Of a stretch of DNA of 31,838 nucleotides, positions 15,660 to 23,595 are shown in pieces. The notes beneath the pieces were generated by a model, which worked only from the letters and a program-made list of their open reading frames with translations, was not told the origin of the DNA and made no database searches. The stretch lies in assembly GCA_963764695.1 (NCBI GenBank), contig CAVXTW010000015.1:477845-509682 (forward strand), in the 5' to 3' direction. Position numbers and translations under genes: made by a program. The first letter of the stretch is position 1. Every line of letters begins with the position of its first letter. The stretch is from an uncultured delta proteobacterium. GTDB taxonomy: Bacteria > Myxococcota_A > Polyangia > Haliangiales > Haliangiaceae.

Positions 15660-16430
15660 TCAGCGCTCGTCGGCGATCTCGACGTGCACGCCCTGCTCGC
15701 GGCAGATGTCGCGCAGCCGCGGCGCCAGCGGCGAGTCGGTGACGAAGTAATCGAGCTGCGAGATGTGGCCGATGCGGACCGGCGCGGTGCGCTCGAGCTT
15801 CATGCTGTCGGCCACCAGGATCGACTTGCGCGCGCACTCCATGATCGCACGCGCCACCTTGACCTCGCGGTAGTCGAAGTCGAGCAGCGTGCCGTCCTCG
15901 TCGATCGCCGACGCGCCGATGACCGCGTAGTCGACCTTGAACTGCCGGATGAAGTTGACCGTCGCCTCACCGACGATGCCGCCGTCCGACTGCCGCACCA
16001 CGCCGCCGGCCACGATGATCTCGATCTCCTCGCAGCCCTGCAGGATGTTGACCACGTGGATGTTGTTCGTGATGGTCAGCAGGCCGCGCTTGCCGCGCAG
16101 GGCCATCGCGACCTGCTCGGTCGTGGTGCCGATGTTGATGAGCAGAGACGAGCTGTCCGGAATCAGCGACGCGGCCACCGTCCCGATGCGCCGCTTGCCG
16201 TCCGTCGCCAGCTTGCGCCGCGCCTCGTAACCGACGTTCGCGATCCCGGAGGCCAGGATCGCGCCGCCGTGAAAGCGCTGCAGGACGCCGCGCTCGCACA
16301 GGTGGTTCAGGTCGCGCCGGATGGTCTGCGGCGTGACGTGGAAGCGGCTGGTCAACGTCTCGACCTTCACCCGGCCTTCCGACCGTGCGAGCGCGACGAT
16401 GTGTGCCTGCCGCGGGTTCAGTCGCTCCAT
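15660..16430 (-). CDS. DeoR/GlpR family transcriptional repressor
   Basis: N-terminal HTH (RQAHIVALARSEGRVKVETLTSRFHVTPQTIRRDLNHL) plus DeoR C-terminal sugar-phosphate-binding fold (VVAGGVVRQ..., IGASAIDEDG). Confidence 0.85.
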   Translation of the reverse strand: MERLNPRQAHIVALARSEGRVKVETLTSRFHVTPQTIRRDLNHLCERGVLQRFHGGAILASGIANVGYEARRKLATDGKRRIGTVAASLIPDSSSLLINIGTTTEQVAMALRGKRGLLTITNNIHVVNILQGCEEIEIIVAGGVVRQSDGGIVGEATVNFIRQFKVDYAVIGASAIDEDGTLLDFDYREVKVARAIMECARKSILVADSMKLERTAPVRIGHISQLDYFVTDSPLAPRLRDICREQGVHVEIADER

Positions 16431-16471
16431 GAAAGCGCGAAAAACGCTAGCAAGGAGCGCGGTCGCGCAGC

Positions 16472-16537
16472 AAACGAAAACGAAGTTTCGTCAATCGGGC
16501 GCAAATGTTTCCGTTTGACTTTCGTTTATTTTCGAAC
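16472..16537. promoter_or_regulatory. cluster of CGAA/TTCG half-sites (AACGAAAACGAAgtTTCGT ... TTTCGTTTATTTTCGAAC): putative GlpR-type operator array
   Basis: Inverted repeat ACGAA-GT-TTCGT (16480-16491), direct AACGAA x2, TTCGT (16521-16525) and palindromic TTCGAA (16531-16536) in the AT-richer divergent intergenic region. Confidence 0.5.
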
Positions 16538-16544
16538 TTAGGCT
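16515..16544 (+). promoter_or_regulatory. candidate promoter for the ABC operon: TTGACT (16515-16520), 18-nt spacer, TAGGCT (16539-16544)
   Basis: Read directly; the spacer is occupied by the TTCG repeats, consistent with repressor occlusion. Confidence 0.35.
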
Positions 16545-16670
16545 TGGGCCGCTGTCTCGAGGAGTTGTTTGCAGTTTCCTCGCAGTGGGTTGGTAGGGAC
16601 CCGATCTGTCCTGGACCCAGCGAAAGACTGGAGCGATGTCTCGATAGCTCCGGGGGAGGATGACCATCCA

Positions 16671-21527: not shown

Positions 21528-22324
21528 AGCGCGTCTCCTGGCTGGTGCCGACCCTCTACATCCTGTTCCTGATGCTGCCGATCTACTGGCTCATCAGCAT
21601 GTCGTTCAAGACGACGAACGAGATCCTCGGCTCGTTCACTGCGTGGCCGCAGCAGTTCACGCTCGACAACTACCGCAAGATCTTCTCCGACCCGACCTGG
21701 TACCTCGGGTACAGGAATTCGATCATCTACGTCCTCATCAACACGGTGCTGTCGGTGACCGTGGCGCTGCCGGCCGCGTACGCCTTCTCGCGCTACCGGT
21801 TCCTGGGCGACAAGCACCTGTTCTTCTGGCTGCTGACCAACCGGATGGCGCCGGCCGCCGTGTTCGCGCTGCCGTTCTTCCAGCTCTACTCGGCGATCAA
21901 CCTGTTCGACACGCACATCGCCGTGGCGCTGGCCCACTGCCTGTTCAACATCCCGCTGGCGGTGTGGATCCTGGAGGGCTTCATGTCGGGCGTGCCCAAG
22001 CAGCTCGACGAGACCGCCTATCTGGACGGCTACGGCTTCTGGCGCTTCTTCACCAAGATCTTCATGCCGACCATCGCGTCCGGCATCGGCGTGACCGCAT
22101 TCTTCTGCTTCATGTTCTCGTGGGTCGAGCTGCTCCTGGCCAAGACGCTCACGTCGGTGGCGGCCAAGCCGATCGCCGCGACAATGACCAGGACGGCGAG
22201 CAGCTCCGGCTACGAGCTGGGCCTGCTCGCGGCGGCCGGGACATTGACGATCATCCCGGGCGCGCTCGCCATCTACTTCGTCCGCAACTACATCGCCAAG
22301 GGCTTCGCGCTCGGCCGCGTCTGA
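21524..22324 (+). CDS. ABC transporter permease 2
   Basis: ATGA overlap with the upstream stop, GGGGGAGGAG RBS, 6-TM MalG-like topology with EAA-type loop (LDETAYLDGYGFWRFFTKIFMP). Confidence 0.85.
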   Translation: MKRVSWLVPTLYILFLMLPIYWLISMSFKTTNEILGSFTAWPQQFTLDNYRKIFSDPTWYLGYRNSIIYVLINTVLSVTVALPAAYAFSRYRFLGDKHLFFWLLTNRMAPAAVFALPFFQLYSAINLFDTHIAVALAHCLFNIPLAVWILEGFMSGVPKQLDETAYLDGYGFWRFFTKIFMPTIASGIGVTAFFCFMFSWVELLLAKTLTSVAAKPIAATMTRTASSSGYELGLLAAAGTLTIIPGALAIYFVRNYIAKGFALGRV

Positions 22325-22337
22325 GGGAGCGACGACC

Positions 22338-22625
22338 ATGTGGAGCAAGCTCTCGTGGATGGCGTGGACCTGGCAGACGGCTGTCTTCTTCCTGGCCATC
22401 GGCTTCTTGCTCCTGTGCATGGCCATCTGGGAGTGGCGCCGTCCGGGCGGCGCGCCCCGCCGCGGCATCCTGCGCATCGACACCACCCGCGGCGACCGCC
22501 TGTTCATCTCGCTGCTCGGCACGGCCTTCATCTTCCTCGGCTGGCTGGCCGCATTCGGCAGCGGCCTGTGGGGCGCGGCGGCCGTCGCCGTCGTCTACGC
22601 GCTCGCCGTCTTCCGCTGGGTGTGA
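22338..22625 (+). CDS. small 2-TM membrane protein (DUF2160-like accessory protein of glycerol-type ABC operons)
   Basis: GAGGGAG RBS 8 nt upstream; product MWSKLSWMAWTWQTAVFFLAIGFLLLCMAIW...LGWLAAFGSGLWGAAAVAVVYALAVF has two hydrophobic helices. The family assignment is from memory. Confidence 0.6.
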   Translation: MWSKLSWMAWTWQTAVFFLAIGFLLLCMAIWEWRRPGGAPRRGILRIDTTRGDRLFISLLGTAFIFLGWLAAFGSGLWGAAAVAVVYALAVFRWV

Positions 22626-22632
22626 GCGCCGC

Positions 22633-23595
22633 GTGAAGGCACTCCGCTTCTCGGACGCGCCGAGGCTCGAAGAAGTGGATGAGCCGCGGCCGGGTCCCGA
22701 CGAGGCCTTGATCCGCGTCCGCCGGGCCGGCATCTGCACGACCGACCTCGAGATCGTGCGAGGCTATCTCGGCTTCCGGGGCACCCTGGGCCACGAGCTC
22801 GTCGGCGAGGTGGTCGATGTCGGAGGGGGCGAGGGCCGCGAGTGGGTCGGCGCGCGGGTGACCGGCGAGATCAACCTCGGCTGTGCGCGGTGCGAGCGAT
22901 GCCTGTCCGGCCTGTCTCGGCACTGCGCGACCCGGACAACCCTGGGCATCGTCGGCAAGGACGGCTGCTTCGCCGAGTACGTGACCCTTCCAGTCCGCAA
23001 CCTGCACCGCGTCCCCGAGGGCCTGTCGGACGCTGTCGCCGCGTTCACCGAACCGCTCGCCGCCGCCTACGAGATCCTCGAACAGCTGCGGGTGGAGCCG
23101 GACAGCCGCGTGGCCGTCCTGGGCGACGGCAAGCTCGGCTCCCTGGTCGCACTCGTCCTGGTGCAGACCGGCGCCGACGTCACGCTGGTCGGCCGCCACC
23201 GCCACAAGCTGGAGAAGGTGGCCAGCCGCGGCGTGCGGACAGCGATGGTCGATGAGAGCATCGGTGGCAACTTCGACCTGGTCGTCGAGGCGACCGGCTC
23301 GGCCGCCGGCTTCGAGCGAGCCCGGTCCCTTCTGCGCCCACGTGGGACCATGGTCCTCAAGAGCACCTACCACGGCAAGCTCGAGCTAGACGCCGCGCCC
23401 CTTGTCATCGACGAGATCACCGTCGTCGGCTCGCGCTGCGGCCCCTTCGCCCCCGCCCTGCGCGCCCTGAAGGAGGGCCGCATCGATCCGGCGCCGTTCA
23501 TCGAGGACGCCTATCCCCTCGCCGACGGCCTGGCCGCGCTCGAGCGCGCCGCGACACCCGGCGTGGCCAAGGTCCAGCTTCTCTGCGAGGCGTGA
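22633..23595 (+). CDS. zinc-dependent alcohol/polyol dehydrogenase (MDR superfamily)
   Basis: GTG 22633, 8 nt after the upstream stop. Catalytic-zinc GHELVGEV, structural-zinc C-x2-C-x2-C-x7-C (CARCERCLSGLSRHC), Rossmann GDGKLG. Confidence 0.8.
   Translation: MKALRFSDAPRLEEVDEPRPGPDEALIRVRRAGICTTDLEIVRGYLGFRGTLGHELVGEVVDVGGGEGREWVGARVTGEINLGCARCERCLSGLSRHCATRTTLGIVGKDGCFAEYVTLPVRNLHRVPEGLSDAVAAFTEPLAAAYEILEQLRVEPDSRVAVLGDGKLGSLVALVLVQTGADVTLVGRHRHKLEKVASRGVRTAMVDESIGGNFDLVVEATGSAAGFERARSLLRPRGTMVLKSTYHGKLELDAAPLVIDEITVVGSRCGPFAPALRALKEGRIDPAPFIEDAYPLADGLAALERAATPGVAKVQLLCEA

Follow-up and report, generated by a model that had tools for sequence, protein, structure and literature searches.

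Glycerol enters Escherichia coli by way of the GlpF channel and not by an ATP-binding cassette (ABC) system. In Rhizobium leguminosarum VF39, by the account of Ding et al. (2012) relayed in PMC7912956, a glpSTPQUV ABC transporter mediates glycerol uptake and the glp genes next to glpR are under its negative control, and in Ruegeria pomeroyi a glpVSTPQ mutant shows a loss of about 80% of growth on glycerol and of about 80% of glycerol drawdown (PMC10130141). GlpR of Cupriavidus metallidurans also represses an adjoining homologous transporter, which glycerol induces, and glycerol relieves a transporter-dependent phenotype there (PMC7912956). Here we analyze a 31,838-nucleotide stretch of DNA from an uncultured delta proteobacterium (contig CAVXTW010000015.1; the whole stretch, 31.8 kb, is termed here the window), in which a preliminary description had proposed a rhizobial glpVSTPQU-type importer with a divergent GlpR-type repressor. 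A homology comparison with R. leguminosarum matched the genes one-to-one with their namesakes and bears this proposal out: with high confidence, the locus encodes a GlpR-controlled, binding-protein-dependent GlpVSTPQU importer for glycerol, as in R. leguminosarum and R. pomeroyi, whose substrate, mechanism of repression and effector we infer.

Relation to the rhizobial glp system

The comparator was the annotated R. leguminosarum locus on plasmid pRL4b5 (L081), which reads glpR-glpD-ATPase-ATPase-permease-permease-DUF2160-SBP-glpK (SBP, substrate-binding protein). Every subunit in the window is the reciprocal best match of its R. leguminosarum namesake, at identities of 62% (GlpR), 63% (GlpV), 51% (GlpS), 59% (GlpT), 74% (GlpP), 77% (GlpQ) and 62% (GlpU). 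The same holds for the two ATPases when they are set against each other: window GlpS shares 51% of its residues with R. leguminosarum GlpS vs 33% with its GlpT, and window GlpT shares 59% with GlpT vs 32% with GlpS. GlpV is 75-89% identical to homologues in many phyla and 88-89% identical to many Joint Genome Institute (JGI) entries named 'glycerol transport system substrate-binding protein', and the nearest ATPases are likewise JGI-labelled 'glycerol transport system' proteins. The best NCBIfam model for the regulator is E. coli-type GlpR (PRK10906), at 246 bits under its 331-bit cut-off and about 90 bits above AgaR, SrlR and others.

Genes were called from third-position GC and Pfam domains; since the window is about 70% G+C, raw open reading frame (ORF) lists are noisy. 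All genes listed in the preliminary description were recovered at their coordinates with Pfam support, but the second ATPase and the first permease proved not to be single ORFs. The features are as follows:

15660-16430, minus strand: glpR, DeoR/GlpR-family repressor, 256 aa (HTH_DeoR, PF08220, E = 1e-15; DeoRC, PF00455, E = 7e-48)
16463-16508, minus strand: glpR-side promoter/operator-like element, TTGAC followed by TTCGTTTTCGTTT repeats (second-best weight-matrix match in the window, 3.1 bits)
16501-16546, plus strand: predicted glpV promoter with overlapping operator (unique top weight-matrix match, 26.3 bits)
16671-18491, plus strand: glpV, SBP, 606 aa (SBP_bac_1, Pfam)
18503-19558, plus strand: glpS, MalK-like ATPase 1 (ABC_tran and TOBE_2, Pfam)
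19558-20644, plus strand: glpT, MalK-like ATPase 2, frame broken by an extra C (Pfam and homology to R. leguminosarum GlpT)
20657-21527, plus strand: glpP, permease 1, frame broken by an extra C at 20892 (Pfam and homology to R. leguminosarum GlpP)
21524-22324, plus strand: glpQ, permease 2, 266 aa (BPD_transp_1, Pfam)
22338-22625, plus strand: glpU, DUF2160 small membrane protein, 95 aa (PF09928, E = 2e-32)
22633-23595, plus strand: Zn-dependent MDR-family dehydrogenase, 320 aa (ADH_N and ADH_zinc_N, Pfam)

The locus thus shares with that of R. leguminosarum seven proteins at 51-77% identity, two distinct ATPases with the same motif asymmetry, a DUF2160 subunit, an SBP of roughly 575-600 aa, a DeoR/GlpR regulator, and a promoter with phased TTCG half-sites across the -35 box and spacer. 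It differs in that the rhizobial genes run in one direction (R-D-S-T-P-Q-U-V-K), whereas the window has V-S-T-P-Q-U with a divergent glpR and no linked glpD or glpK; moreover, its SBP, a lipoprotein, has an additional linker, the locus is chromosomal and in a myxobacterial host, and its glpT and glpP are frameshifted as sequenced. R. pomeroyi DSS-3 (SPO0608-0612; PMC10130141) resembles the window in gene order, with the SBP gene first (V-S-T-P-Q), and probably in the sequence of its SBP, to judge from other Rhodobacteraceae, whose SBPs are 75-80% identical to window GlpV.

Scanning reference genomes gave 80 such loci, spread over Alpha-, Beta-, Gamma- and Deltaproteobacteria, SAR324, Verrucomicrobia, Pelagibacter and Anaeromyxobacteraceae. 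Wherever the contig was long enough, the gene order was V-S-T-P-Q-U or S-T-P-Q-U-V, usually with a DeoR gene adjoining, and glpD or glpK lay at most 10 kb away in 59 of the 80. Linkage to glpK/glpD is typical of this importer family, not obligatory.

GlpV begins with a lipoprotein signal, MRIRLMAVIAAAALASC (window 16671-16810), with lipobox LASC, followed by a Gly/Ala/Ser-rich linker of about 25 residues. Most proteobacterial GlpV homologues (about 578 aa) have neither lipobox nor linker; the SBP of a Burkholderiales metagenome-assembled genome (MAG; L017) has a similar lipobox and linker. Hydropathy gives three hydrophobic segments in GlpU, not the two transmembrane helices first claimed for the DUF2160 protein. 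The ratio of nonsynonymous to synonymous substitution rates (dN/dS), measured against the syntenic metagenome contig L086, is 0.05-0.32 over all six transporter genes, which hold no further stops, and 0.10 for glpR. In the mechanism that we propose, lipoprotein-anchored GlpV would capture glycerol and dock on the GlpP/GlpQ permease pair, with GlpU as an extra subunit beside it, and a GlpS/GlpT heterodimer with one canonical and one degenerate ATP site would power transport.

Two one-base insertions in glpT and glpP

Third-position GC changes frame at about 19950 in glpT and about 20890 in glpP, with no stop or start codon at either point, and each gene carries one extra C relative to every close relative. 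At site 1 (19948/19949), the window reads GAG CCG C ATG CTG (GAGCCGCATG), where the nearest relatives have GAG-CGC-ATG and L086 has GGG-CCG-CTG; at site 2 (20892), it reads CTG GCT C ATC GAG (CTGGCTCATC), where relatives have CTG GTC ATC. Freed of the extra C, the two sites become GAGCGCATG and CTGGTCATC. Because glpT and glpP each carry a one-base insertion, the importer is broken as sequenced, and the public gene calls on the source contig contain GlpT only as a 230-aa C-terminal piece (P0401). The glpP start codon as sequenced opens a 555-aa ORF (20657-22324) made of 78 native residues, about 210 out-of-frame residues and then in-frame glpQ: Wrong frames hold few stops because G+C is high, and a gene caller could report a fused permease here.

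Three other explanations were rejected. Programmed frameshifting or slippage has no substrate, as neither site has a slippery heptamer or homopolymer run; there are no compensating indels within glpT or glpP against four relatives; and assembly frameshifts are not pervasive, since the M16 pair, RsmE/RDD, and the metallo-beta-lactamase-fold protein and esterase are all separate, intact genes.

Both genes are whole elsewhere. An intact 361-aa GlpT is encoded on four other metagenome contigs, and an intact 289-aa GlpP on the three of these that reach glpP (L086, L091 and L093); GlpT versions 97-98% identical were found. Nucleotide identity to the window is 92.4% for L086 (syntenic over 20 kb), 97.9% for L091, 97.4% for L092 and 96.2% for L093. 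In comparison with L091 and L092, the sole indels in aligned glpV-glpQ are the extra C at 19948/19949 and, where covered, that at 20892, and in comparison with L086 and L093, the two extra Cs are the sole unbalanced indels within glpS-glpU. With its extra C removed, GlpP is 289 aa long and 100% identical to an intact protein (P0405) on three JGI contigs. The dN/dS values against L086 (0.05 for GlpP, 0.32 for GlpT) lie within the range of the neighboring genes, and the original frames hold no stops.

The sites themselves have the look of merged alleles. Site 1 (GAGCCGCATG) resembles a splice of the GAG-CGC-ATG and GGG-CCG-CTG haplotypes, and GCTC at site 2 resembles both bases of a possible GTC/GCC polymorphism retained together: More distant homologues have Ala there, and no GCC allele was seen in this population.

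A second assembly (ENA ERZ25039516 contig_1386, 764 kb; L082, L083) is 99.67% identical to the window and shares both extra bases with it (the contigs are 509,682 and 764,270 bp long). This sharing counts against an artefact, as finding both insertions in two assemblies is what a real mutation predicts, unless the two drew on the same reads or suffered a shared systematic error. The second assembly differs from the window at 69 positions over 20.7 kb, 46 of them in the glp transporter genes (within 17897-22696), and has ten other indels, nine within 19063-21709. Its substitutions often run toward residues of other taxa (ATSDP to ATTEP, VIMLDEP to VIMFDEP, IFVTHD to IYVTHD), and its consensus looks contaminated by reads from highly similar glp genes of other organisms. 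Elsewhere in it (L082), an extra T at the equivalent of 11767 fuses two M16 genes into a 1254-aa call; Pfam domain boundaries and third-position GC indicate that the two-gene version in the window is the correct one. A Gammaproteobacteria MAG with long-read-style contig names (L011, 11518-12787), in which GlpS is split over two frames and no intact GlpT is detectable, may be a second case of indel damage to glp genes in a metagenome assembly.

The two insertions are probably an assembly artefact, that is, consensus errors of long-read metagenome assembly at polymorphic sites, and the organism itself probably has an intact transporter. The strongest competing account, which we consider unlikely without thinking it negligible, holds that the insertions are real and that the importer has just been inactivated in this strain, leaving a very young pseudogene cluster. 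Beyond the occurrence of both insertions in two separately deposited assemblies, this account draws on the similarly fragmented public calls (P0401, 230 aa), on the intactness of all other window genes examined, which makes frameshifts non-pervasive, and on the closeness of the two hits, which lie no more than about 950 bp apart in a single operon and would fit relaxed selection after the first. However, neither gene shows any other defect, whether as a stop in the original frame or in its dN/dS; repaired GlpP matches completely a protein that is intact elsewhere; both sites are shaped as expected of mixed-allele consensus errors; nine of the ten other indels in the second assembly are concentrated in the glp region; and Kofleriaceae-like relatives keep the cassette intact, conserved and in the same chromosomal position. 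As a caution, highly conserved genes in long-read metagenome assemblies can gain consensus indels that mimic pseudogenes.

The downstream dehydrogenase and the glpR-glpV intergenic region

Several points weigh against glycerol as the substrate. A tblastn search with R. leguminosarum GlpK and GlpD found neither gene in the 31.8-kb window, and none of glpK, glpD and glpF occurs in the window or in the loci of Kofleriaceae-like relatives. The system of C. metallidurans CH34 (glpR and Rmet_2229-2234) is alike in that loss of GlpR derepresses the transporter and glycerol is the inducer. It differs from the window in having glpK and glpD close by, and CH34 can grow on glycerol without the transporter, which affects Zn/Cd resistance there (PMC7912956). 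No solved structure of a GlpV-type SBP was found, only a marginal match to 5iai, nor were biochemical ligand-binding data for such an SBP found in the literature; a survey of SAR11 SBPs contains nothing on glycerol binding. Glycerol specificity would follow from genetics in distant hosts, with R. leguminosarum GlpV 63% identical to that of the window.

The gene after glpU bears on the same question. It encodes a protein of MDR fold with catalytic and structural Zn motifs (GHE and Cys-x2-Cys-x2-Cys-x7-Cys in the translation), and 7 nt, without a terminator, separate it from glpU, so that co-transcription with glpU is likely. The label of polyol dehydrogenase that it had been given lacks support: It reaches no NCBIfam equivalog (the best, IolM and Tdh, score about 119 bits vs cut-offs of 380-450), hence none of a polyol subfamily, and its linkage to glp genes is not conserved. 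Such linkage is confined to near relatives whose dehydrogenase is at least 90% identical (L086, L093); among the 80 loci there was one weak match (L030, 32% identity), and in the Kofleriaceae-like contigs L094 and L096 other genes follow glpU. A 76%-identical homologue in a Myxococcota MAG (L089, 3030-6227) overlaps the start of an OpuA-type transporter (an ATPase and a permease-OpuAC fusion), which hints at a different functional partner for the dehydrogenase family. In L096 (12998-20000), a single small unannotated ORF separates glpU from the ATP-synthase operon, and the corresponding interval of the window (22633-31000) holds genes for the dehydrogenase, DsbA, a Uma2 endonuclease, an MFS transporter, a pectate lyase, a metallo-beta-lactamase-fold protein and an esterase. 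The dehydrogenase, a lineage-specific neighbor outside the conserved glp system, forms one end of this variable block, which spans about 8-9 kb and separates glpU from the ATP-synthase operon.

It is improbable, in our assessment, that the importer takes up other or broader polyols which the dehydrogenase oxidizes, in a module independent of GlpK and GlpD. This proposal would account for the absence of glpK and glpD from the window and the closest myxobacterial loci, for the tight spacing behind glpU and for the adjacency retained in L086 and L093. Against it are the lack of any polyol-dehydrogenase equivalog match, the operon in which the 76%-identical homologue accompanies an OpuA-type transporter, the Kofleriaceae-like loci that have the same glp cassette in the same position without the dehydrogenase, and a regulator closest to GlpR models. 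That the ligand has stayed the same is further argued by the 75-89% identity of GlpV across phyla and by the 59 of 80 loci near glpD or glpK.

The regulatory side of the glycerol importer rests on the 240-bp region between glpR and glpV, which holds six of the 15 TTTCG/CGAAA pentamers of the window, a count reached by none of 5000 shuffles of the region (shuffled mean 0.4). We aligned the intergenic regions of 24 loci with divergent glpR and glpV, and derived a weight matrix from 23 of them, with the window left out. The element conserved in the aligned regions, tTTTcnaTTGACnTTCgtTTtnTTTCgntTnatanT, pairs a TTGAC -35 box with a downstream -10-like hexamer; TTTCG-type half-sites, spaced by about 10-11 bp, lie upstream of the -35 box, directly after it and in the spacer. 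In the window, the top match of the matrix is at 16501-16546 (26.3 bits vs a background of -53.6 +/- 11), where the predicted glpV promoter has its -35 box at 16515-16520 (TTGACT), its -10-like hexamer at 16539-16544 (TAGGCT), and phased operator half-sites at 16508 (TTTCC(G)), 16520 (TTTCG) and 16530 (TTTCG). The glpR-side element (16463-16508) has the opposite orientation, with CGAAA at 16475 and TTTCG at 16486, and inverted repeats I2 and I5 tie the two elements together. To the eye, the R. leguminosarum glpD promoter, ATTCGTTTGACATTCGGATCTCTTTCGTTTTAACT, is laid out in the same way. The TTCG/CGAA array noted in the preliminary description is thus real and not due to chance, as judged by the shuffle test, the unique matrix match and its conservation in 23 orthologous intergenic regions.

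The idea that the array arose by chance from the composition of an AT-richer intergenic region, with the DeoR protein regulating something else, can be given almost no credence: A generic sigma-70 scan found no promoter in the intergenic region and the full composite element falls under threshold in some family members (e.g., L004, L006 and L081), but the observed pentamer count was never matched by shuffling, the element lines up position by position with 23 orthologous promoters, all of other phyla, and is unique in 31.8 kb, the promoter of the GlpR-repressed R. leguminosarum glpD operon has the same TTCG phasing over -35 box and spacer by eye, and glpR adjoins the transporter in most of the 80 loci.

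In the absence of inducer, GlpR would occupy the helically phased TTTCG half-sites over the glpV -35 box and spacer, together with the glpR-side set, and there, we infer, occlude RNA polymerase; glycerol-3-phosphate or glycerol would release it and lift the block. The consensus of E. coli GlpR operators has a TTCG/CGAA core, which the array may resemble. The E. coli GlpR regulon (glpD, glpFK, glpTQ/glpACB) is similar in having a DeoR-family repressor and operator arrays, with 4-8 GlpR sites per operon (PMC7567609), and is dissimilar in that window GlpR scores below the equivalog cut-off and its TTTCG half-sites recur in direct orientation every 10-11 bp or so and do not clearly form 20-bp palindromes.

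The 125-nt leader contains, immediately past the glpV promoter, a weak hairpin with a T-rich tail (CTTGGGCCGCTGTCTCGAG GAGTTGTTTG; 16543-16571), a kind of site that is no commoner in the window than in shuffled sequence. An Rfam scan for a riboswitch or other known RNA returned no match in the leader or elsewhere in the window.

ATP sites, host and history of the cassette

The two subunits of an ABC dimer contribute jointly to each ATP site: The H-loop from one and the signature from its partner face the same ATP. We surveyed these motifs in 76 GlpS and 74 GlpT homologues. GlpS has LSGGQ throughout (ISGGQ in one), with an intact Walker A and a D-E Walker B, yet all 76 lack the H-loop histidine, having mostly ATTEP or ATSEP in its place (ATSDP in the window). 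In GlpT, Walker A, Walker B and the VTHDQ H-loop are all canonical, whereas LSGGQ is absent from all 74, with LTADGKQK in 46 and LSPDN, LTADA or other variants in the rest; window GlpT has LTADGKQK, which fits L[TS][AP]D.KQK. The degenerate LTADGKQK signature read from the window earlier is thus present and family-wide, and the single non-canonical ATP site proposed with it is supported and extended by the loss of the GlpS histidine: Because the GlpS H-loop and the GlpT signature face the same ATP, the two deviations share a site, which leaves the other one fully canonical. The canonical site would be formed by GlpT Walker A, Walker B and H-loop with GlpS LSGGQ, and the degenerate site by the P-loop side of GlpS, lacking the H-loop histidine, with the LTADG signature of GlpT.

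Degenerate ATP sites are well described for heterodimeric exporters such as TM287/288, TAP1/2 and PatAB (PMC7756269), which likewise have one composite site that is non-consensus in H-loop and signature and another that is canonical. These are exporters of type I in which the transmembrane and nucleotide-binding domains are fused, whereas GlpS/GlpT belong to a type I importer with separate MalK-like ATPases; furthermore, the degenerate site of the exporters usually also lacks the Walker B glutamate, and GlpS keeps its D-E pair. In the literature searched, we found no description of a degenerate site in the GlpVSTPQU importer family, which is weak evidence of novelty. From these motifs, the chances are evenly divided that GlpS/GlpT would give a type I binding-protein-dependent ABC importer a natural ATPase heterodimer with a single catalytic site.

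The host is a Kofleriaceae-like myxobacterium of the class Polyangia. Homologues of the dehydrogenase and the nearest named GlpT come from Myxococcota (Sandaracinaceae, Polyangiales, Kofleriaceae), and the locus is flanked by genes for an M16 peptidase pair, an Lnb_N protein, DsbA, Uma2, an MFS transporter, PrmA, RsmE, S21 and an MshEN-domain protein. In a Kofleriaceae MAG (L094) and the related L096, the same order of M16-M16-Lnb_N, divergent glpR and glpVSTPQU occurs at the same position as in the window; because of this shared position, the cassette is taken to be long-resident and vertically inherited in the clade. Recent horizontal transfer, as a dip in GC might imply (0.63-0.70 vs 0.70-0.80), was rejected on account of a third-position GC of 0.93-1.0, as in the flanks, and of the fixed placement beside M16-M16-Lnb_N in Kofleriaceae-like contigs: The dip reflects amino-acid composition, not foreign codon usage. 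The regulator and promoter type of the window are those of Rhodospirillales-like and Hyphomicrobiales-like loci (GlpR identity 68-70%), and in Anaeromyxobacteraceae (L004, 8113-9777) glpD lies between glpR and glpV, and GlpR is 48% identical to that of the window, which suggests that two myxobacterial lineages acquired the cassette separately.

The locus is a known, genetically characterized system, and its only unusual features are the two one-base insertions, which are more likely technical than biological. The asymmetry of the ATP sites and the DUF2160 subunit, both of which mark the family at large and are not specific to the window, are reasonable structural targets; if the asymmetry is true, the two together could make this importer family a structurally uncharacterized variant of the MalFGK2 paradigm. 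For the organism, the comparison extends the characterized glycerol ABC importer, together with its GlpR control, to Kofleriaceae-like soil myxobacteria, in which its place on the chromosome is fixed and neither glpK nor glpD is linked to it.

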